A stretch of 64,000 nucleotides of DNA from Chiloscyllium plagiosum (lineage: Eukaryota): contig NC_057718.1 of the NCBI RefSeq assembly GCF_004010195.1, forward strand, positions 68,554,812 to 68,618,811. Reading direction: 5' to 3'. Position 1 is the first letter of the stretch. The number at the start of each line of letters is the position of its first letter. The translations under genes and the position numbers were made by a program. This document shows, in pieces, positions 2,046 through 63,580 of this stretch. The notes below the pieces were generated by a model that worked only from the letters and a program-made list of their open reading frames with translations, had not been told where the DNA came from and did no database searches.

Positions 2046-3670
2046 TCGGAAGCCCTGAAGATGGCAAGAGCACAAAATGTATTCTGGGTGGGTGATTTCA
2101 ATGTCTACCATCAAGAGTGGCTCAGCAACAATACTGCAGATCGAGCTGTTCATGCCCTAAAGTACATAGCTGCTGTTCTGGGTCTGCAGCAGGTGATGAG
2201 GGAATCAACTAGAGGGAAAAACATACTTGATCTCATCCTTACCAGTTTCCCAGCTGCAGATACATCTCTCCAAGACAATACTGGTAAGAGTGACCAGCAT
2301 GTAGTCCTTGGGGAGACAAAGTCCCACCTTCACATTGAGAATAACCTCCATCATGTGTGGCACCATCATCATGCTAAGTGGAAGAGACTTAGAACAGATG
2401 TAGCAACTCAAGACTGGACATCCATGAGGTGCTGTGGGCTATCAACAGCAGCAGAATGGTACTCCATATCCCCCACTCAACCATTACCATCAAGCCATGG
2501 GATCAATCTTAACTCATTGGAGAATGTAGGAAAGCATGCCAGTAGCAGCACCAGGCATACCCAAAGATGAGGTTTCAAACTGGTGAAGGCACCAAACAGG
2601 ACATTGGCATGCCAAACAGCATAAGCACTAAGTGATACACAAAGCTAAACGATCCCATAACCAACAGATCAGATCTGAGCTCTGCAGTTCTGCCACAATC
2701 AGTCCTGAATGGTGGTGGACAATTAAATAACTCATTGGAGGATTCTCCACAAATATCAGTGATGGAAGAGCCAAGCACATCAGTGAAAAAGATGAGGCTG
2801 ACACTTTCACAGCAATTTTCAGCCAAAAATGCCAAATGGATGATCCATCTCGGCCTCCTCTAGTGGTCCCCAGCATCACAGATATCAGTCATCAGCCAAT
2901 TCAACTCACTCCACGTGATATCAAGAAACGGTTGGAGATACTGAATATTGCAATTCCAGCAATAGTACCGAAGACGTGCTTCAGAACATGCAGCTCCCTT
3001 AGTCATGCTGTTCCAGTACAGTTACAACACTGGTATCTACCCAACATTATAGAAAATTGCCAAATTATGTCCTGTACATAAAAAAAGGACAAATCCTACC
3101 TGGCCAATTACCACCCCGACTGTCTGCTCTTTATCATTAGTAAGGTGATGGAAGGTGTCATCATCAGTGTTATCAAGCAGCACATGCGCAGCAACAATCT
3201 GCTCAGTGATGCCCAATTTGGGTTCTGCCAGGGCCCTCAGCTCTGGACCTCATCACAGCCTTGGTGTAAACATGGACAAAATTCCAGGGGTGAGGTGAGA
3301 GTTACAGCCCCTGACATCAATGTTACATTTGACCAAATGTGCATTAAAGAACCCTCTCAAATCTGGAATCAATTGGTATGTGTGTGGTGGGGGGTGGGAG
3401 GGGGAAAGGGGGTGTGTGCAAACTCTCCACTGAGTGGAGTCACCATCTTCAGTTGCTTCATCATGACCTTCCATCCATCATAAGGTCAGAAGTGGGAATA
3501 TTAGCCAATGATTGCACAGTGTTCAGCACCATTCGCAACTCCTCAGATACTAAAGCACAGTCCATGTTCAATTGCAACAAGATCTGGACAATATCCAAGC
3601 TTGGGCTGACAAGTGGCAAGTAACACTTGCATTACACAAATTCCAGGCTACAACCATCATCGATAAGAAA
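2046..3670 (+). mobile_element. LINE-B (CR1-group, APE-RT) degenerate fragment
   Basis: WVGDFNVYH, TRGKNILDLILT, KSDQHVV, LSDAQFGF, HDLPSIIRSEVGILAND. Confidence 0.85.
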
Positions 3671-29108: not shown

Positions 29109-30164
29109 TTGCAACAAAAGATTCAGCTGTTTTACACAATGATAACCATACAGATACTCAAACCTCAGTGACAGGTCACCCCTATCTCTATGCTACGTCT
29201 CCTTGTCCAACTCGGACAGATGTAATTCATTTTCTTTACAGTAATTCTCTGTGCATTCCCTCAGTGCTATTTTCTTGAATTAATGTGACTTTTAAACAAG
29301 TTGCTAACGCAGTTCATTACTACTACCTGATAAGTTTCCATAAACTCAAGTCTTCAGCAGTCTTGTGTTTTCCTCTTAGACACCTCTACAATCTGAAGAT
29401 GGGACTGCTCACCAAGATGTAGCATCACAAAGGCAAATCAAAGCGCACAAAGGATTCAGAGATAGATACAGCACAAGTGTAATGAATAGTCCAACAATAC
29501 ATGTGATAACATTCAGCAAGAATGAGGACAATTCAAGATAGGTTTACTGTGTATGTGAGTAAAGTTAAGCATCATAACCTGAGGTACAAGCACATACATT
29601 CAAATGGAAATATGATGCCAAAGGGAAAATGGAGACCTGACTCCACAAAGAGCAGGATTGGATACTAAATATTCCTTTTACATCAGGATATAGGAACGAC
29701 AGAGAAGAAAGGAAAGGAAAAGGGAGATAGTGTTGACTAGAGTGAATATTGCAGTTATGGAGAAAAAGAATGTTATTGTGGAATCAATGGCATAATATAT
29801 GATCAGAGTTGGGAATCAAAACAGGTACTATCTCATTCTATCGCCCACCAACAAGATAGAATGATATAGAGCTGCAGACTTACAGAGAAACTAGACAACA
29901 GCATAATCTACGTAGCATTATCTTTCCAATGTAATGAGTAAGGAGGCTGAAATAACTCCACAGAGGCCGGTAACCCATCACCAAATCACATTTTATTTAC
30001 ACATGGAGAATCCTTGACACTGATCCATCCTCTGCAGAGCCAGCTTTCAGAGTGAACAGAGTGACATTTCTGTTCTTTTTTTCTCCTAACAGAAAAGTCT
30101 TTCACTCTCACTGATCCACCTCCCTCAGAACCAGCTCTCAGAGTGAAGAAGTAACAATTCTGCT

Positions 30165-33100
30165 TTTTTGTTTGTTTTTTTTTCCTTTTTCTTTGTGCAT
30201 GCAGGTGTCGGACACAGTGAAAAACAACAAATGTGTGGCTCAGGTTGTGGGGCACAGGTTCCCAGTACAGGACTTTGGGACATTTCTGTTCATTTATTTT
30301 CTTTTTTTTGGTGCTTATATTTTTGCCAGCACTCTTGTGTGTGTGCAGGTGTGAGACACAGTGAAAGACACAAGGTGTACAAATCTTTATTCGATTTCCA
30401 CCACCAGAAAGAAAGAAAATACCTGAATGGCCGGTGACAAGCAGTGCCCTTCTTAGAGGGCAATGCTGTGTGATCAAACAGTGAAGGGGAGGGCAGGGAT
30501 TAAATCAAAATAGAGTTGGACGGGGAAGTAATACACTCCACTCCCTGCGGCGCCCACCTCTCCCTGAACAACTCCAGGGTGTTGGTGGACACCGCATGCT
30601 TCTTCTCCAGACACCCGGGCTCTAGCGTAACTGCGGAACAGGGGCAGGCAGTCGGCCCTAATGACCCCCTCCACGGCCCGCTGCCTGCACATGCTAGTTT
30701 GGCAAGGTCCTGGAGCAGACCCACGAGGAGGTCTTCAGACCTGCCCTCCCTCCTCCGTACCGGGTGCCTGAAGATCAGGAGCGTGGGACTGAAGTGCCAC
30801 CAAAAGCAGAGGAGGAGTTCTTTAAGAAAATCAAAAAGGGAGTGCAAACGCCCACACGCAATATACACGTGGTCCACGGAGTCCACAGCGCCACAGAACA
30901 AGCAGTTGGGCTGGGAGTCCTTGAACCACCCCAGTCTGCGGTTGCAGGGGACTGCTGCGAGCAGCATTTCTGTTCTTTTTTTCTTTTTTTCCTTTTTTTC
31001 TCAGAACATCTGAAACTCCTGCTTTTTTTTTTTTCTCAGAACATCTGAAACTCCTGCTTTTTTTTAGACCCCCAAACTACCGCCTAACTGCAGTAGTGCT
31101 TATTTTTTCCCCAGCACCCATGTTGTATGTGTGCAGGTGTGAGACACAAGGTGTTCGAATCTATATTCAAATTTCCACCACCAGGAAGAAAGGAAACACC
31201 CAAGTGGCCAGTGACAAGCAGTCATCATCAAAGCTTCACATCAAAGGGCAATGCTGTGTGATCAAACAGTGAAGGGGAGGGCAGTGATTAAATAAAAATA
31301 GAATTGGAGGGGGAAATAATGCACTCCACTCCCTGCGGTGCCCACCTCTCCCTGAACAACTGCAGGGTGTTGGTGGAGACCGCATGCTCCTTCTCCAAGG
31401 ACACCCGGGCTCTAACGTAACTGTGGAAGAGGGGCAGGCATTCGGCCCTAACGACCCCCTCCACAGCCCGCTGCCTGGACCTGTTTATGGCCAGTTTGGC
31501 CAGGCCCAGGAGCAGACGCACCAGGGGGTCTTCAGACCTGCCCTCCCTCCTGCGTACCGGGTGCCTGAAGATCAGGAGCGTGGGACTGAAGTGCAACGAA
31601 AGGCAGAGGAGGAGGTTTTTAAGAAAATCAAAAAGGAAGTGCAAACACCCACACCCAAAATACACGTGCTCCACGGACTCCACAGCGCGACAGAACAAGC
31701 AGTTGGGCTGGGTGTCCGTGAACCACGACAATCTGCGATTGCTGGGAACTGCTCCGTGTAGCATTTCTCAGATTAGATTAGATTACTTACAGTGTGGAAA
31801 CCGGTCCTTCGGCCCAACAAGTCCACACCAACCCGCCGACGCGTAATCCACCCAGACCCATTCCCCTACATTTACCCCTTCATCTAACTCTACGGGCAAT
31901 TTAGCATGGCCAATTCACCTAACCTGCTCATTTTTAGACTGTGGGAGGAAACCAGAGCACATGGAGGAAACCCACGCAGACACGGGGATAATGTGCAAAC
32001 TCCATTCAGTCAGTCGCATGAGGCTGGAATTGAACCCGGCACTCTGGCGCTGTGAGGCAGCAGTGCTAACCACTGTGCCACCGTGCCGTCCACTGTTTTT
32101 TTCTTCCTTTTCTTTCATTTTATGTTTTTTTGTCCTTTACCCCCACACTACCGCCTAACTGCGGTAGTGCTTATTTTTACCACAGCACCCATGTTGTGTG
32201 TGTGCAGGTGTGAGACACAGTGAAAGACTTAAGGTGCACGAATCTTTCGTCAATTTCCACCATCAGGAAGAAAGGAAACACCCGAGTGGCCAGTGACAAG
32301 CAGTGCCTTTCACAAAATGCAATGCTGTGTGATCAAACTGCGAAAGGGAGGGCAGGGATTAAATCAAAATAGAGTTGGAGGGAGAAATGATACACTCCAC
32401 TCCCTGCAGCGCCCACCTCTCCCTGAACAACTCCAGGGTGTTGGTTGACACCGCGTGCTCCTTCTCCAAGGACACCCGGGCTCTAACGTAACCGCGGAAA
32501 AAGGGCAGGCAATCGGCCCTAACAACCCCCTCCACAATCCGTTGCCTGGACCTGTTAATGGCCAGTGTGGCCAGGCCCAGGAGCAGACCCACGAGCAGGT
32601 CTTCAGACCTGCCCTCCCTCCTCCGTACCGGGTGCCCGAAGATCAGGAGCGTGGGACTGAAAGTGCAACCAAACGCAGAGGAGGAGGTTTTTAAGAAAAT
32701 CAAAAAGGGAGTGCAAATGCCCACACGCAATATACACATGGTCCACGGATTCCACAGCGCCACAGAACAATTGGGCTTGGGAGTCCGCGAACCACCGCAA
32801 TCTGCGGTTGCAGGGGACCGCTGCGAGCAGCATTTCTGTTCTTTTTTAAAAAAAATTTTTAACCCCCACACTACCGCCTAACTGCGGTAGTGCTTATTCT
32901 TTCCCCAGCACCCATGGTGTGTGTGTGCAGGTGTGGGACTGTTTTAAAAAAATTCTCAAGGTCAAGGACNNNNNNNNNNNNNNNNNNNNNNNNNNNNNNN
33001 NNNNNNNNNNNNNNNNNNNNNNNNNNNNNNNNNNNNNNNNNNNNNNNNNNNNNNNNNNNNNNNNNNNNNNNNNNNNNNNNNNNNNNNNNNNNNNNNNNNN

Positions 33101-34156
33101 NNNNNNNNNNNNNNNNNNNNNNNNNNNNNNNNNNNNNNNNNNNNNNNNNNNNNNNNNNNNNNNNNNNNNNNNNNNNNNNNNNNNNNNNNNNNNNNNNNNN
33201 NNNNNNNNNNNNNNNNNNNNNNNNNNNNNNNNNNNNNNNNNNNNNNNNNNNNNNNNNNNNNNNNNNNNNNNNNNNNNNNNNNNNNNNNNNNNNNNNNNNN
33301 NNNNNNNNNNNNNNNNNNNNNNNNNNNNNNNNNNNNNNNNNNNNNNNNNNNNNNNNNNNNNNNNNNNNNNNNNNNNNNNNNNNNNNNNNNNNNNNNNNNN
33401 NNNNNNNNNNNNNNNNNNNNNNNNNNNNNNNNNNNNNNNNNNNNNNNNNNNNNNNNNNNNNNNNNNNNNGGCCAACTCTCCCTGAACAACTCCAGGGTGG
33501 TGGTAGCATTTCTGTTCTTTTTTTCTTTTTGCCTATTTTTTCCCCTGCACCCAAGTTGTGTGCAGGTGCGAGACACAGTGAGAGACACAAGGTGTATGAA
33601 GCTTTATTCAATTTCCACCACCAGGAAGAAAGGAAACACCCGAGTGGCCAGTGACAAGCAGTGTCCTTCACATTAAAGGGCAATGCTGTGTGATCAAGCA
33701 GTGAAGGGGAGGGCAGGGATTAAATCAAAATGGAGTTGGTGGGGGAAATAATGCACTCCACTTCCTGCAGCGCCCACCTCTCCCTGAACAACTCCAGGGT
33801 GTTGGTAGCATTTCTGTTCTTTTTTTTATATTTTTTTAAATTTAACCCCCACACCACCGTCTAATTGCAGTAGTGCTTATTTTTTCCCCAGCACCCATGT
33901 TATGTGTGTGCAGGTGTGAGACACAGTGAGAGACACAAGGTGTACGAATCTTTATTCAATTTCCACCACCAGGAAGAAAGGAAACACCCGAGTGGCCAGT
34001 GACAAGCAGTGCCCTTCACATCAAAGGGCAATGCTGTGTGATCAAACAGTGAAGGGGAGGGCAGGGATTAAATCAAAATAGAGTTGGAGGGGGAAATAAT
34101 GCACTCCACTTCCTGCGGCGCCCACCTCTCCCTGAACAACTCCAGGGTGTTGGTAG
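30165..34156 (-). mobile_element. Tandem array of Tx1-clade (L1-superfamily) 3' ends
   Basis: Units at about 30165-30280, 30292-30964, 30976-31761, 32095-32830, 32842-gap, gap-33506, 33518-33808 and 33820-34156; most start with a poly-T run; ORFs encode zf-RVT-like CLFCGAVESVDHVYIAC..VRARVSLEKEH..FRERW. Confidence 0.85.
31769..32090 (-). mobile_element. HE1-type SINE, full length
   Basis: tRNA-like head ggcacggtggcacagtggttagcactgctgcc and (taatc)n tail. Confidence 0.9.
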
Positions 34157-34604
34157 CATTTCTGTTCTTATCTGTCAGCCAGGGCTCCCTGATTGGAACA
34201 TCTTCTATGAGGTCCACCTGATTGACCTCGTGACTATCACTATATCCCTTCCTTCCTGAGTCTGAGGACAAAGGTTTTTTTTTGGTGGCTCCACTAGCAC
34301 ATGTTTAGCCTCGGGTCAGGTTCCTCCAACTCTGTGATGTAGGTGGGAGTGTAATATACGGTGGCTTCTCTTTATTGGCCAGAGCATGGATTCTGGAACA
34401 GTCAGAAAGGCTGTCGAGGAGCCAGGCACATTTTGCTCCTGCACTGTTTGCAAGTTTACAGCTTTCATATGGTCCACATGCTTGTTCAGGACTACTGCAC
34501 CCACTGAACTCTATATTTCCCTGGACCTGACCTCGCACCAACCATAACTGTTACCCATGCAGGGCAATTCCTACGGTTCCTACACCAAACTTTGTTCCCT
34601 GACA

Positions 34605-34702
34605 TAAAGCATCATTCTCATTTAGTGCCTGAAATGTCGATTCTCCTGCTCCTTGGATGCTGCCTGACTTGCTGCGCTTTTCCAGCAACACATTATTCAG
34701 CT
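34605..34702 (+). mobile_element. PLE family-1 terminal repeat fragment inside the integrase
   Basis: gcctgaaatgtcgattctcctgctccttggatgctgcc. Confidence 0.75.
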
Positions 34703-35704
34703 AGCGGAGTCTTGTTTCCAGCATTGGCATTGGTCATTGGCAGATCTGGGAAGATTAGATTTAACATGGTGCTGAATCTTCTCCCCATTAGCAACTCTGC
34801 TGGAGCTATCCCTGCAGTTGCATGAGGGGTGGCCCTATAGTCAAATAAGAACTGGGATAGTTAGGTACGTAGTGGAGCTGTAAGTAAGCCTGCCTTCAAA
34901 GTTCGGACTGTCCTTTCTGCCAGACTATTGGACGATGGATGGTATGGAAGTGAACTTTTATACCGAATATCATTCGACTTTAGAGAATATTAAAATTCCT
35001 TGCTTGTAAACAATGACCCGCTTTCTGTGACCAACACTTCCAGGATTCCATGTCTTGCAAAAGATGCGTGCAGTTTTTCTATTACCATCCCCATGTTTGA
35101 TGAATGAACTCAATGCATATCAAGCCACTTTACACGGGCGTCCACAATAACTAAGAACATTGAGCCCATGAAAGGACCCGCATACTAGATGTGTAACCGA
35201 GTCCACGGTTTAGCTGGCCATTCCCATGAATGTCCCTGTTGGCAATCTGGGCACAACCTCACCAACACAGCTATGTCTGCATCCGATCCAGGCATAGCTT
35301 TTCACCAACATCTCCTTTTGTAGACCCCTGGATGACTCTGGTGGAGTTTAGCCATTATCTGGTGGTGATCTTTGCTCAAGACAATCACTCTTGCTCACCA
35401 TAATGACATGCCAGCCTCTACTGTAATACCCTCTCTCTGCGTCCAAAAAGGTTTCTTTTCCAGATGTGACGGCTCTTTGGTTTCCCCCATCACTACCAGC
35501 TTTTTCAGTTTTGCCTGGACTGGATCTTTCTATGTCCAACTTTTGATATTGTCAACTGTGACTGTAAAGTTGTCCAGAAAACTTAAAACCATTATGGACT
35601 CTTCCAGTGGTGATGTATCTGCTAGCGGGAGGCAGCTCAATGCATCTGCATTTGCTATTTGGCTTCCTGGACAGTGTGTCAACTTGTAATCATATACAGT
35701 ATTA

Positions 35705-36085
35705 GAATTAGCTTTATTGTCACATGTAATCATATGATTGCAGTGAAGTCCAGCAGAAGAATAAAACAGAAAAATAAAGAAATAAATTTACTGTCCATCC
35801 ATCCCAGTCTGCGCCAGACCTCACCTCAAGACAACCCTGGGTATCCACCCCTAGGCCACACAGGGGTTTCGCTTCTAGTCCGTGTGCTGGACACTCACCT
35901 CCAGTCCGCATGCCGGGGACTCACCTCTGGTCCGAGTGTTAGGAACTCACCTCCAGTCTGCAAAAGGGCCTTGCCTCTAATCTGCAGGCTGAGGACTTGC
36001 CTCCGGCTCATAACAGGACTGTTATTAGAGATGACCACTGAATTTGGCCTGAGGCCATCAGCGGCGCTGCCTTGTCCTCTTTAAG
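35705..36085 (-). mobile_element. Non-coding insertion in the Gypsy RNase H with a Rex1-like tail
   Basis: Left end tttattgtcacatgta resembles the Rex1-like end near 61105; GC-rich internal repeats. Confidence 0.45.
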
Positions 36086-37979
36086 TAGACCTAGGAAAAG
36101 TTTATGGTCCGTTATTATTACAAATTTACATCCATACCAGTATTGGTGGAACTTCAAATATAACCATCAGACCATCTTTCTTTACACTCTGCATTAGCCA
36201 AAATCCTGGATGCATATGCTATTGGGCATTCCTCTTCATGGTGCCACCTATGAGCTAATAGTACCCCTATGCTATACGGGGAGGCATCATACTTCAGTGC
36301 CAGATCTAGAGGATGATAGCTGTTTCTTCACTTTCCTGAAAGTTGTGGCTAGGTCATGTGAGCATTTCCACGGCTGACCTGTTTTTAACAGTTGATGCAC
36401 AAGTGCCAGGATTGAGGCCAGGTTATGTATGAATTTTCTGTAATAATTCATCAGTCCAAGGAAAGATCTAAGCTCTGGTACAGATGTGGGAGCACATTTG
36501 ATCACTCTCACCTTATCTTCCAATGGGTGTATTTCGGTCTTGTCCACTTTGTTGCCCAAATAGATCACTTTGGGTTCCTGGAACACGCATTTTCCCTTCT
36601 AAAGCATATGCCTGTCTGGGAGAAATGTTTAAGGACCATGTTAAAGCTCTCTAAATGCTTCTTTTTGGCCTTCCTGGTCACCTAGATAAATGGCAACATG
36701 GGATAGACAATATAAAAAATTCTCTATCGTCTGCTGAAAAATTGCACAGGCTGACAATACCCCAAAAGGGAGTCTCCTATATTGGCTACAAACCCTAATA
36801 GGTATCAATTGTAGTCTACTTCTGGGAATTCTCACCTAACCACAATTGAAAGTATGCATGGCTCATGCCCATTTTCACGGATGACAGCTCCCCACCAGCT
36901 TTGCCTATAAATCCTCTATGCGAGGGATTTGATATTTATTCAGCTGCAAAAAGTAGCTTAAAATACCCACAAAGGTGAAAAGAGCGGTCAAGTTTCACAA
37001 TCGGTCCAACCAGTGCTGACCATTCCACAAATTGGACTGTTGGATGATTCCTTTACTTTCTAACCTTCTGATTTGTGCCTCTGCTTTTGCCTGTAAGACG
37101 AATAACACACTGCGCAGGCCTTGCAAAATTATGGTTTTGCTTCCTGATCCATTGATAGTCCCGAGACCGTCTTGATAACCTTCCGAGTTTTTAATTAAGA
37201 CTTCACTCAGACAGCCATTTTCTAATCGAAAAATGTTAAGCCAATGTAGGGACATCTTTCTCAACCAATGTTGTCTCATCAAGCTTGGACCATAGCCTTT
37301 TACTACAATCACTGGTAACCGAAGTTATACCCTTATTCTGTAAAGGTTCCCCAGCATAGGTTCCCAGTCCAGCCAAGGTCTTGCACAAGACAGCAAACTA
37401 ATGTTTCACATCTAGATAATCCTGGTGTTGTGAGGCAGCAGTGCTAACCATTGAACCACCAGGCCATCGTAGAATTTAGAACTGCAAATGTTACCGTTTT
37501 TTTTTTAAATTGTTTTTTGAATTGGTAAGATGGTTGATGAGGATAGTGCAGTTGATGTGGCACTATTGTTGCCATTGACAATCTCAATTGGATGAAGATG
37601 ACATCTGCTAGGCTTCACAATTTGTATGTCCTTAGATGACTCAGCAGAGAGGACAAAAATTACCCAGAAGAGAAATCCTTAAGCTAGAATTCACTGGTGA
37701 GGTACTGCACATGGAACTATTCTTCATATAATCACACATTAGACAAAGGAGAACCAGTGGACGTGATCTATTTGAATCCAGAAGCCTTTGACAAAGGGCT
37801 GCACAGGAGGCTGTTACATAATAACTTGTTCAGGGCAAGGTCCTGGCATGGATAGTGGATTGTCTGACAGGACGAAGGCAGTGACTGAGGATAAAGAGGT
37901 CTTTTTCAGGATGACAGCTGGTGACTATTGGAGTTCTGTGGGGTCAGTGTTGAGACCATAATTATGCACATCATAAAAA

Positions 37980-42176: not shown

Positions 42177-42358
42177 TGCAATGGTGATCACCTGTAATGT
42201 GACATGAACCCAAGGTCCCGGTTGAGGCCCTCCCTATGGGTACCGAACTTAGCTATCAGCCTCTGTTCGGCCACTTTCCTCTGCTGCCTGTCCCGAAGAC
42301 CACCTTGGAGGATGGTCACCGAAGGTCCGAGGCTGAATGTCCTGGACCACTGAAGATA
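41565..42358 (-). mobile_element. PLE family 2 3' end
   Basis: Reverse complement of 44990-45878 and 11400-12076; hammerhead-like motif at 41628-41661. Confidence 0.85.
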
Positions 42359-42612
42359 TGGAGATACTGGCAGTCATGTCCTCATCTACTGCTCTCATAT
42401 CTGATTTATTGCCCACATTACCAAATTCACCAATGGGGATCGGCCACTTTCCTCTGCTGCCTGTCCCGAAGACCACCTTGGAGGATGGCACCCGAAGGTC
42501 CGAGGCTGAATGTCCTGGACCACTGAAGATATGGAGATAATGGCAGTCATGTCCTCATCTACTGCTCTCACATCTGATTTATTGCCCACATTACCAAATT
42601 CACCAATGGGGA
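42267..42612. repeat. 173-bp tandem duplication
   Basis: 42267-42439 and 42440-42612 with a few substitutions. Confidence 0.9.
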
Positions 42613-50664: not shown

Positions 50665-53600
50665 CCTAAGAACATAAGAACGTACGAACTAGGAGCAGGA
50701 GTAGGCTGTCTAGCTCTTCGAACCTGCTCCGCCATTCAATAAGATCATTGTTGATCTTGGGTATGCAGAACCACTTACCCACACTCTCACTGTATCCCTT
50801 AATTCTTTTATTGATCAAAAAAATGGACATTAACTTTAAAATCATTTACTGAAGTAGTGTCAACAACTTCACTGGGCAAGGAATTCCATAGATTAACAAC
50901 CCTCTGGGTAAAGAAATTCCTTCTCGATTCAGCTCTAAATCAGTGGGGTGGCATGGTGATTAGCACTGCTGCCTCACAATGCCAGAGACCCAGGTTCAAT
51001 TCCCGTCTCAGGCAACTGTCTGTGTGGAGTTTGCACATTTTCCTCGTGTCTGCGTGGGTTTCCTCCAGGTGCTCCGGTTTCCTCCCACGGTCCAAAGATG
51101 TGCAGGTTAGGTGAACTGGCCGTGCTAAATTGCCCGTAGTGTTAGGTGAAGGGGCAAATGTAGTGGAATAGGTTTGGGTGGGTTGCTCTTCGGATGGTTG
51201 GTGTGGACTTGTAGGGCTGAAGGGCCTGTTTCCACACTGTGAGTAATTTAATCTTAAGGCAATGCCCTTTTGTCCAATTGAAACATCCTCTCTACTTCTA
51301 TCTTATCTATTCCCTTCATAATTTTATATGTTTCTGTAAGATTTCCCCTCATTCTTCTGAATTCCAATGAACATAATCGTAGTCTACTCAGTGTCTCCTC
51401 ATAGGCCAACCTCTTCAACTCCAGAATCAACCTAGTGAACCTCCTCTTCACACCCTCCAGTGCCAGTACATCCTTTCTCAAGTAAGGAGACCAAAACTGT
51501 ACACAGCACTCCAGGTGTGGCCTCACCAGCACTTTGTACGGCTGCAACATAACCTCTCTGCTTTTAAACTCAATCCCTTAGCAATGAAGGACAAAATCTC
51601 ACTTGTCTTCCTAACTACTTGTTGTGCCTACAGACCAAACGTCCGTGATTCATGTACCAGGACATCCAGATCCCTCTGCGTAGCAGCATGCTGCAACTTT
51701 TTACCATTTAAATAATAATCCTTTTTACTATTAACAAATGGATGACTTCACATTTATTAACATTGTATTCCATCTGCCAGACCTTTGCCCATTCATTCAA
51801 TGTATCTATGTTCCTCTGCAAAGTTTCACAGTCCTTTGCACACTTTGCTCAGCCACTCAACTTAGTGTCATTTGCAAACTTCAACACCCTACATGTGGTC
51901 CCCAACTCCAAATCATCTATATAAATTATCAATAATTGCAGTCCCAACACCTGATCCCTGAGGCACAACACTAGTCCCTTATTGCTAACCAAAATAGCAC
52001 TCATTTATCCCCACTCTTTGCTTCCTGTTAGTCAACCAATCCTCTATCCATGCTAATACTTTATCCGCAATGCCATGCATCCTTTACCTTATGCATCAAT
52101 CTCCTTTGCAGCACCTTCTCAAAGGCCCTTTGGTAATCTAGGTGCACCACATCCACTGGGTCCGTTGTCTACTTTGATTGTAATGTCTTCATAGAATTCC
52201 ACAAGATTTGTTAAAGATGATCTGCCCTTCATGAACCCATGCTGTGCCTGCCCAACGGGACAATTTCTATTGAGATGCCCTGCTATTTCTTCCTTAATAA
52301 TAGATTCAAGCATCTTCCCCACTACAGTCATTAAGCTAACCAGTCTATAATTCCCCATCTTTTGTCTACCTCCCTTTTTAAACAGCGGCATCACATTTGC
52401 TGTTTTCCAATCCGCCGGGACATCCCCAGAATCCAGCGAATTTTGGAAAATTACCGCCAGTGCACTTGTTATTTCTCCCGCCATCTCTTTTAGTACCCTG
52501 GGATGCATTCCATCAGGCCAGGAGACTTATCTATCCTCAGCTCCATTAGCTTTCCCAACACTACCTCTTCTACAAGAATGATTGTTTCCAGGTCCTCACC
52601 TACCTTTGTCTCTTTGTCAATTACTGACATGTTATTAGTGTCCTCCACTGTGAAGACCGATAGAAAATATCTGTTCAATGCCTTGGCCATTTCATCACAT
52701 TCCATAAATAAATGCCCCTTCTCATCCTCTAAAGGATCAACGTTTACTTGAGCAACTCTTTTTCATTTTATATATTTATAAAAACGTTTGCTATTTGTCT
52801 TTATATTCTATGCTAGGTTTTCTCATGTCGTATCTTACTTTTCTTTATAGCTCTTTTTCTGGTTTTCTGTTGACCTTTAAAGTTTTCCCAATCTTCTAGT
52901 TTCATGCTGTTTTGGCCACCTTGTATGCCTTCTCTTTCAATTTGATAGCTTCCCTTATTTCCTTAGATACCCATGGCAGATTGCCCCTTTTCTTACAGTC
53001 CTTCCTTTTCACTGGAATATATTTTTGCTGAGCACTTTGAAAAATTGCTTTGAAAGTCCTCCACTGCTTGCCAACTGTCCCACCATGAAATCTTTGTTTC
53101 CAGTCGACTTTAGCCAAGTCCTCCCTCATTCTATTGTAGTCTCTCTTATGTAAGCACAGGACCCTGGTATTGGTTTTTATCTTCACACTCACCTTGTGTG
53201 TTCTAAATTCAACCATACTGTGATCACTCCTTCCAAGAGGAACCGTAAATATAAGGTCATTAATTATTCCTGTCTCGTTACACAGGACCAGATCTAGGAT
53301 AGCTTGCTCTCTCATTGGTTCCATTACATACTGTTCAAGAAAACTATCACGGATACACTTAATGAACTCCTCCTCAAGGCTACCCTGACCGAGCTGGTTC
53401 AACTAATCTACATGTAGATTAAAATCCCCTATACTAATTCCCGTACCATTTTTACACACATTAGTTATTTCTTTGTATATTGCCTGCCCCAATGTTACGT
53501 TATCATTTGGTGGCCTATAGATCACACGTATCAGAGATTCTTTTCTTCTTAGAATTTCTGATTTCCACCAAATGGATTCAACCTTATTCTCCATAGAACC

Positions 53601-62321: not shown

Positions 62322-63580
62322 ATTGTACAGCATGGAAATAGACCCTTTAGTCCAACTTGTCCAAGTCAACCAGATATTTTACATTTATCTCGTTCTATTT
62401 GTTAGCACTTGGCCCACATCCCTTTCAACCCTTCCTAATCAAATCCAATTGGATGGGTATCAGCTTTCACCACCACATCTGGCAGCTCATTCCATACACA
62501 CACCACTGTGAAGAAGTTGCTCTTTTGGTTGCTTTTACATCTTTCCCCTCTCACCTTAAACCTGTGCCCTCTCGTTTTGGACTCTCCTACCCTGGAAAAA
62601 GACCTTGGCTATTCATTCTATACCAGCCCTTTGTGATCTTAAGAACTATAAGGTCACTTCTCAGTCTCTGATGCTCCAAGGAAAATAGCCCCAGTATATT
62701 CAGCCTCTCCTTAAAACTCAAACCCTCCAACCCTGGCAACATTCTAGTAAATCTTTTCTGAACCCTTTCAAGTTTCATAACATCATTCCTATTGCAAGGA
62801 GGCCAGAATGGAAGGTAGTATTCCAATGTCCTATGTAGATTAGATTAGATTACTTACAGCGTGGAAACAGGCCCTTCGGCCCAACAAGTCCACACCGCCC
62901 CGCTGAAGCGCAACCCACCCATACCCCTACATTTGCCCCTTACCTAACACTACGGGCAATTTAGCCTGGCCAATTCACCTGACCTGCACATCTTTGGACT
63001 GTGGGAGGAAACCCACGCAGACACGGGGAGAACGTGCAAACTCCACACAGTCAGTCGCCTGAGGCGGGAATTGAACCCGGGTCTCTAGCGCTGTGAGGCA
63101 GCAGTGCTAACCACTGTGCCACCGTGCCGCCCAGTGCTAACCCAGCAACATGACCTCCCAACGCCTATACTCAATGCACTGACCAATGAAGGCAGACATA
63201 TCAAATGCCTTCTTCTCCTATCTGCCTGCTACTCAACTTTCAAGGAATTATGAACCTACACCCCAAAGTCTCTTTGGCAACATTCCGCAGGGCCCTATCT
63301 TTAAATGTATAAGTCTTGCTCTGTTTTTCCTTACCAAATTGCAACACTTCACTTATCTAAATTAAACTTGTTCTGCCAGTCTTTGGCCTATCTGATCGAA
63401 GTCCCATTGTACTCTGAGGTAACCTTATTCACTGTCCACAACACCTCCAATTTTAGTGTCATCTGCAAACTTACTAATTATTCCTCCGGTATTCACATGC
63501 AATGGACCCAGCATCGATCCTTGCAGCAAACCGCTGGTCACTGGCCTCCATTCTGAAAAGCAGCCTTCTACCACTGTCCT
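62322..63580 (-). mobile_element. CR1 family C 3' fragment
   Basis: KLERVQKRFTRMLPGLEGLSFKERL. Confidence 0.85.
62836..63132 (-). mobile_element. HE1-type SINE, young
   Basis: CpG-intact head and (taatc)n tail. Confidence 0.9.

Follow-up and report, generated by a model that had tools for sequence, protein, structure and literature searches.

A stack of Tx1-clade retrotransposon copies inside a likely Gypsy-type long terminal repeat of Chiloscyllium plagiosum, with signs of growth at its front

Several long interspersed nuclear elements (LINEs) favour particular target sequences, and a few of them are close to the case described here. Tx1L of Xenopus laevis, whose second open reading frame (ORF2) is YTX2_XENLA, inserts in the DNA transposon Tx1D (PMC4494074), and the crocodilian families Tx1-8_Crp and Tx1-4_AMi prefer retrotransposons with long terminal repeats (LTRs); that work suggests transcription from the flanking target (Kojima 2015, PMC4494074). 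In Drosophila, R1 forms head-to-tail copies with 14-bp target-site duplications (TSDs) as separators, new copies entering the 5' TSD; target sequence carried on the RNA anneals and gives precise 5' junctions, and off-target copies are frequent in the species with most stacks (PMC2718515). The joining of LINE 5' ends and the priming of the second strand are still poorly understood (PMC13486585, PMC6895275). Here we describe a stretch of 64,000 nucleotides from Chiloscyllium plagiosum (NC_057718.1, positions 68,554,812 to 68,618,811; the whole of it is called the window below) in which copies of a LINE of the Tx1 clade are stacked inside one LTR of an old, likely Gypsy-type retrotransposon. Loci elsewhere in the genome are labelled with L-numbers.

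At least eight LINE pieces, all on the minus strand and each with a poly(A) tail, split the LTR at 29948-34244 and are separated by the locus's own word of 11-13 bp. The 11-mer stands exactly at 30065, 30281, 30965, 32831, 33507, 33809 and 34157, as the original prediction had listed, and its 13-mer form is kept at six of these seven sites; the eighth listed copy, at 31762, is interrupted by a same-strand short interspersed nuclear element (SINE; ~31770-32092). With at most one mismatch allowed there are 9 matches, compared with a shuffle mean of 2.2 and 1 of 100 shuffles that reached 9. This separator differs from the form present in most empty LTRs and was therefore made locally, in agreement with the earlier view of the motif as the target-site duplication of this locus. 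The seven or more same-orientation 3' ends counted before were also recovered, and a piece beyond an assembly gap (~32842-32945), which has its own start, raises the unit count to at least eight. The units had been described as differing among themselves, which is true of their 3' ends; what had been missed is that the 5' junctions fall into two main groups, 34156/33808/33506 and 32830/31761/30964, identical within each group and common to three units each, yet joined to different 3' ends. We propose that this stack behind the TATA-like box of the LTR probably grew by insertion at its front, with each new copy taking its 5' end from the copy already resident.

The evidence comes largely from the rest of the family. 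A 30-nt pattern from the 3' end of the LINE has 833 exact matches, and the first 100 in genome order gave 86 loci, 66 of which hold more than one LINE piece. A common 5' start occurs in 174 of the 645 within-array pairs (27%), as against 15.5 +/- 4.2 upon shuffling (2000 shuffles, maximum 36) and 1.9% between loci, and the earlier picture of fully independent units is not supported. For the measurement of divergence, alignments kept 267 of 360 units (those under 60 bp or short of the 3' region were excluded) and ratios of observed to expected divergence were taken over a set stretch of the reference. Two pairs from one array are not independent of each other, and intervals were bootstrapped by array. 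In pairs that share a start the ratio is 0.47 (95% interval 0.34-0.60) at 5-60 bp from the junction, 0.70 at 60-120 bp and 0.96 (0.78-1.17) over 120 bp. Leaving out 7 large arrays gives 0.54, 0.69 and 1.01, and in shared-start pairs that include the first unit the ratio rises from 0.42 to 1.11. Same-start pairs of different loci stay at ~1.0 in all bins, and different-start pairs within arrays are near or above 1 (3' parts 0.94-1.30). The first unit is involved in 15 of the 25 sharing arrays, an outcome that crossing-over between units of different start would not produce. The direction of growth can also be read from age, as in 29 of 46 arrays divergence is lower in the first unit than in the last one (p=0.003), which makes growth at the front likely.

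Within the window the two front units, W7 (33820-34156, minus strand: end of ORF2, 3' untranslated region (UTR), terminal hairpin and poly(A); 3.6% diverged) and W6 (33518-33808, minus strand; the 5' junction of W7 and a shorter 3' end), fit a model in which the front is copied. They differ at 3/100, 3/99 and 8/78 positions where 9.1, 9.6 and 7.3 differences were expected, and their junction bases are alike and unlike the reference copy. Further back, W2 and W4 have two variants in common that are absent at other loci (0/9, 0/18). Two LTR-like pieces in the tail of W3 (31000-31022 and 31035-31057, 23 bp each) belong to a non-local LTR variant; they were likely 3'-transduced from another locus, and they favour an RNA from another locus as the source of that unit.

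The choice of site is strongly biased at the genome level. In this unbiased sample of 86 loci, 44 have the upstream LTR half immediately in front of the LINE cluster (44 of the 74 with a visible 5' end) and 47 have a true downstream half behind it; 37 have both halves, 54 have at least one and 32 have none, and the control figure is 3 of 395 windows. Matches to the post-TATA region only were not counted as LTR flanks, since the head of the LINE resembles that region, and TSDs called automatically were disregarded if shorter than 10 bp or consisting of poly(A). Judged by eye, 33 of 36 tight junctions break after the TATA-like word and the next 10-16 bases, and no antisense insertion at the target was seen among the junctions examined in this way. 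Antisense LTR matches at 18 of the 86 loci were rejected as counter-examples; they are mostly the internal palindrome of a sense LTR, and none splits at the target. A reverse sample drawn with a 23-nt LTR pattern (1994 exact matches, the first 30 examined) contained 4 LTRs split at the site by the LINE, 1 split by a poly(A)-only insert and 1 with an unrelated SINE further on. At L187, L069, L079 and L081 the insert at the target site is likewise hardly more than a poly(A) tract flanked by duplicated target words.

One target type thus accounts for over 20% of the flanks (54/86), the level at which Kojima 2015 calls an element target-specific, and with 32/86 loci outside the LTR family the LINE lacks the strict site specificity of R2. 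Exact TSDs of 10-16 bp belonging to the locus itself surround 14 of these 32 off-LTR copies, so specificity is loose. The post-TATA site of the LTR, in sense orientation, is therefore a strong preference and not a strict specificity: of the original claim that the LINE targets the TATA region, insertion just after the TATA-like box stands at many independent loci, and exclusiveness does not.

Off-target copies retain traces of where they came from. At 21 of the 32 loci outside the LTR, words of LTR type stand within the tail or behind it, which points to donors inside LTRs. Copies at L067, L076, L089, L118, L121, L143 and L146 have LTR post-TATA sequence between two poly(A) runs, and off-target copies with such pieces likely represent 3' transduction from LTR-resident donors. 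A motif count at the level of single units (109/236 tails and 5/88 control A-tracts) was set aside as inflated by transduction. Stacks also exist at sites unrelated to this LTR, where L091, L092, L093, L120 and L146 have their own local TSD between units with different transduced tails.

Full-length copies link the LINE to the LTR in another way. A search with the LINE 5' UTR gave 30 loci, and by eye the LTR post-TATA word precedes the 5' UTR in 29 of the 30 5' ends. Nine of the 30 heads (type A) continue out of LTR sequence at positions ~104-177, in three cases out of the upstream LTR half itself, and the insert thereby restores the promoter region in front of itself. Eight type A loci were fetched and five had both ends; in four of these five testable cases the first 40-60 bp agree with the sequence directly behind the 3' end of the same element, with private variants in common with the locus's own downstream LTR half at L230 and L232, and with a match to a head-like piece right behind the 3' end at L231 and L233. 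These ends may be read as a long duplication that stops where the head of the RNA can pair with the target. In type B (21/30) a piece of the LINE's own 3' region is fused, without a tail, to a shortened head, and the type B copies at L200-L229 and L238-L249 have a terminal direct repeat of ~50-630 bp. Of 12 type B loci fetched, 10 could be judged and 2 could not: at L240 and L243 the full-length copy starts at the same base as a unit 7 kb behind, and at L238 and L242 the start is common to the unit in front. The arrangement of the heads suggests that the LINE likely uses the LTR promoter. In a poly(A) single-cell run sense reads are piled on the LINE 3' end (depth ~600 versus up to 20), with ~30 on the 3' end of a partner element described below and none in a second run of the same sample; we did not use these reads as promoter evidence, because they do not reveal where transcripts start and could stem from internal priming.

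Taken in sequence, the proposed process would begin with the preference of the family for this site, in sense and with 10-16 bp duplications of the local word, together with its landings elsewhere. The apurinic/apyrimidinic (AP) endonuclease would nick the A-run of the TATA-like box, and reverse transcription would be primed on the poly(A) tail. With a full-length head like the LTR post-TATA region, the insert appears to rebuild ~170 bp of the LTR at its front; it could then be transcribed from the LTR promoter, and read-through would carry LTR and array pieces to new sites. The new complementary DNA (cDNA) would pair with homologous sequence just downstream of the nick, which would be the post-TATA region of the LTR if the site is empty and a resident LINE copy if it is filled, and the whole stretch between the nick and the pairing point would be duplicated. 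The expected product has the same 5' junction, a 5' stretch of ~100 bp from its neighbour and a 3' part from a different RNA. Later block duplications, visible in a few large arrays, have enlarged some stacks. We give even chances to the broader proposition that the LINE made the end-repeat of an extinct retrotransposon both its promoter and its landing pad, with cDNA pairing downstream, stacks that grow by themselves even off target, and a new kind of passenger, non-coding and LTR-headed, hosted within them.

A number of observations weigh against growth by front insertion with inherited 5' ends. In the window, W3 differs from W4 at 15/96 and from W2 at 14/100 positions next to their shared junction, where 7 were expected. 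Pairs with high divergence at both ends are the commonest class among the 92 on-target pairs (42), the others being low-then-high (34), low throughout (12) or high-then-low (4). In five off-target arrays the units resemble one another from end to end (0.37, 0.40, 0.62), which fits one event or one donor better. A single clade of five window units is not rejected (p-AU, by the approximately unbiased test, 0.088; 280 bp), and one of the three long window units is narrowly rejected (p-AU 0.046; 660 bp), a mixed outcome for the local clade that the original prediction had named as the result that would speak against it. The 32/86 loci outside the LTR family count here too, at least L082 fronting the partner element instead. 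The head at L236 does not match the local LTR half; among the ten judgeable type B loci four clearly share a neighbour's start, L248 is ambiguous and five do not; and in L240 the 5' piece resembles the 3' end of the element itself almost as closely as it does the resident unit. Since the LINE copies are younger than the host LTRs, promoter function at the time of insertion is uncertain, and the mechanism is proposed from sequence.

Some of these points favour amplification at the DNA level, in which one or two insertions were multiplied by tandem duplication or unequal crossing-over and gene conversion by other copies or cDNAs subsequently replaced their 3' parts. The two classes of junction seen in the window, the single clade at 280 bp, the 12 on-target pairs and the off-target arrays that are alike throughout, and the block duplications visible in L060, L095 and L122 are all compatible with it. 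We nevertheless regard it as unlikely, as it requires a second step in nearly every pair (the ratio is 1.0 beyond 120 bp), the 3' parts of units that start differently are no more similar than expected (0.94-1.30), several starts, transduced pieces and a second element family occur together in arrays, and one clade is rejected for the three long units. The reading first given to this locus, fully independent sequence-specific insertions at a regenerated target as in R1, with shared starts arising at microhomology hot spots, is an improbable alternative. It has the R1 precedent, and it agrees with the different 3' ends and tails, the background divergence of the 3' parts, the non-local LTR pieces in the W3 tail and the recurrence of some starts between loci (up to 6 loci). 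It does not account for start sharing of 27% within arrays versus 1.9% between loci, for same-start pairs of different loci that have no excess similarity, for the junction bases common to W7 and W6 and unlike the reference, for the private variants of W4 and W2, or for the repeated hits at off-target sites, and the divergence gradient disfavours it as well. Least probable is the building of stacks in single integration events, by machinery that remains at the nick and serially copies several RNAs, or a single RNA more than once: the off-target sites of L092, L093, L120 and L146 were hit 3-4 times with the same local TSD and the idea was raised for target-site triplications, which are in print (PMC1687206), but divergence rises from the front to the back of arrays, a unit with 3.6% divergence and one with 80-87% identity stand together in the window, and the younger partner element is interleaved; such events may hold for part of the off-target stacks.

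R1 targets 28S ribosomal DNA and anneals through upstream target sequence, whereas this LINE uses an LTR and would pair downstream; a truncation point inherited from a resident copy is not described for R1 in the consulted part of PMC2718515. Long TSDs are known for R9 (126 bp) and Dualen (median 900 bp), and here too a LINE insertion seems to duplicate far more than 10-20 bp; those duplications are ascribed to distant nicks (PMC9977147, in the part available), whereas in this case it is homology with the incoming element that would mark the end of the duplicated stretch. Tx1L resembles our LINE in ORF2, in its sister position and in having another transposon as target, and differs in that its target is Tx1D, with the LINE at an LTR post-TATA site and of loose specificity. 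For the crocodilian families the main text of PMC4494074 names neither the LTR group nor the site, which the supplement may do, and stacks and LTR-like heads are not described for them in the accessible part of that paper. The LTR target had been suggested to be undescribed; with Tx1-8_Crp and Tx1-4_AMi already in PMC4494074, targeting of an LTR adds a further case to a habit already described. Neither a LINE at the TATA box of an LTR nor inherited truncation points were found in the literature searched, which was largely without subscription papers and Repbase Reports, and PMC3510499, PMC8501958 and PMC2861651 contain, in their available portions, nothing bearing on mechanism. Within the same literature the LTR-like heads, the inherited 5' junctions, the off-target stacks and a ~1.9-kb non-coding LTR-headed partner are apparently new.

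The stacks record the 5'-joining step through a copied tract that can be measured (~100 bp) and through the direction in which they grow, and a homology-guided model can therefore be tested on existing genomes. Should the proposal be correct, the stacks would be a genome-wide fossil record of second-strand priming by a LINE. The locus would also present one transposon apparently living off the promoter of another, and a Tx1L-like endonuclease with a putative loose preference for a TATA-proximal word.

Assignment of the LINE was made from longer copies, because the 154-aa ORF2 end in the window has no significant Pfam match; of the seven window fragments scanned, six gave no relevant Pfam match. 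L110, a long copy continuous with a window unit, has an open 622-aa piece of ORF2 with AP endonuclease and reverse transcriptase (RT) domains (protein P0002: PF03372, E 1.3e-11, followed by PF00078, E 4.1e-12), and it is 52% identical to Xenopus Tx1L ORF2 over 99% of the 622 aa. In a quick tree of 30 of the 120 listed matches, with Tx1L as the only named reference, it is sister to Tx1L and two turtle proteins with a support of 89 in the Shimodaira-Hasegawa-like approximate likelihood ratio test (SH-aLRT), and with one more protein the support is 99. Named Keno and Tx1-Mar sequences were absent from the listed matches. The frame upstream of ORF2 has a zf-CCHC match (E 0.024) that is below the curated cut-off. 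Copies show a poly(A) tail, 5' truncation and a TSD, and units differ pairwise by ~10%. The LINE belongs to the Tx1 clade, as the similarity and the grouping of ORF2 indicate and as had been predicted. Zinc-knuckle ORF1-like frames of another LINE-like element are present at L167:9014-9900.

The host element is represented in the window by its 3' LTR and a decayed internal region (34258-37400, minus strand) with RT-like, RNase H and integrase regions, many stops and later insertions; no second LTR was found within the window. The RNase H match is PF17919 (E 1.6e-7, 36157-36327). At L168, about 69-75% identical in DNA to the window's internal region, two LTRs 4.5 kb apart enclose an RT region, an integrase zinc finger and an integrase core, in that order. 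The element thus has paired TG..CA LTRs, a purine tract, no env and, with RNase H placed from the window, an RT-RNase H-integrase order, which excludes Copia only. Matches to PF17917/PF17919 and PF17921, families taken as pointers to this type, suggest that its class is likely Gypsy, and the structure of L168 and the RNase H match support the Gypsy-type host named earlier. Divergence is 15-20% between paired host LTRs and 23% among sampled LTR halves, more than the LINE units (~10%), and the host is therefore the older of the two. A common word that resembles a transfer RNA primer-binding site follows the 5' LTRs of L040, L054 and L050. Near the split LTR at L163 there is a 264-aa open frame (1458-2249) that is presumably akin to an intronless HAD-type phosphatase.

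The LTR of the window runs from 34244 to 29948. Removal of the array had been said to rejoin an LTR of ~225 bp; the halves do match empty LTRs, with an end at 29948 rather than 29930 and a sum of 205 bp. Natural empty copies measure 234-244 bp, and the shortfall is due to a deletion in the upstream half. That half (34157-34244, minus strand) matches positions 3-46 and 70-108 of natural empty LTRs and contains CCAAT at 34192-34196, the TATA-like word at 34165-34172 and the first target word at 34157-34169. Directly before it is a purine tract (34245-34257, minus strand), likely the polypurine tract and at the same position in L034, L049, L055 and L059. The downstream half (29948-30075, minus strand; 85% match to positions 104-237) has the last target word, an initiator-like word at 30049-30056, AATAAA within 29991-30000 and a terminal CA. 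All four motifs of the original description, the purine tract, CCAAT, the TATA-like word and AATAAA, are thus present in sequence, and their geometry, with the initiator-like word ~25-30 bp on from the TATA-like word, points to a presumed RNA polymerase II promoter.

A second poly(A)-tailed element of ~1.9 kb uses the site and the TSD of the LINE (L275:3274-5205, L276, L278), with pieces also in L044, L058, L122, L232 and L250-L274. Its head resembles the post-TATA region of an LTR variant, it forms tandem stacks, and its best 3' ends are 96-98% alike. It has no ORF of 150 aa, no similarity to ORF2 and no Rfam match. It is interleaved in LINE arrays at other loci, and none is in this window. 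This partner is likely a non-autonomous element, and the common site and TSD suggest that it was mobilised by the LINE. A comparable pair is SINEU with Tx1-Mar, in which a non-autonomous partner sits at the target of the LINE and is possibly transcribed from the flanking target (PMC4494074); the heads of SINEU derive from small nuclear RNA, in contrast to the ~1.9-kb partner with its LTR-like head.

The remaining units follow behind W6, all on the minus strand. W5a (33470-33506) has the 5' junction of W7 and W6 and is cut by the assembly gap, a run of N at 32970-33469 that contigs of four runs do not span; those contig joints that skip the array most plausibly represent LTR copies elsewhere that are empty, and they were set aside. 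Beyond the gap come W5b (32842-32945), the short 3' piece with its own start, a hairpin and a tail, and then W4 (32093-32830) of the long class. The unrelated SINE in the separator of W4 and W3 (31770-32092, minus strand) has dispersed copies at 50947-51254 and 62837-63136. W3 (30976-31761) and W2 (30292-30964) are also of the long class, and W2 codes for the C-terminal 154 aa of ORF2. The oldest unit, W1 (30076-30280), is made of a pair of diverged LINE fragments (80% and 87%) and of an LTR-like piece (30109-30163) with poly(A) on either side. In the W1 region at 30237-30281, and in L065 and L075, the LINE breaks at nearly the same ORF2 position (reference 3306-3312) and resumes at different places. 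Elsewhere in the window, positions 448-620 and 666-838 are a 173-bp duplication (99%) and a 173-bp tandem pair (97%) lies in 42267-42612; these near-perfect repeats (448-838, 42267-42612) are possibly assembly artefacts.

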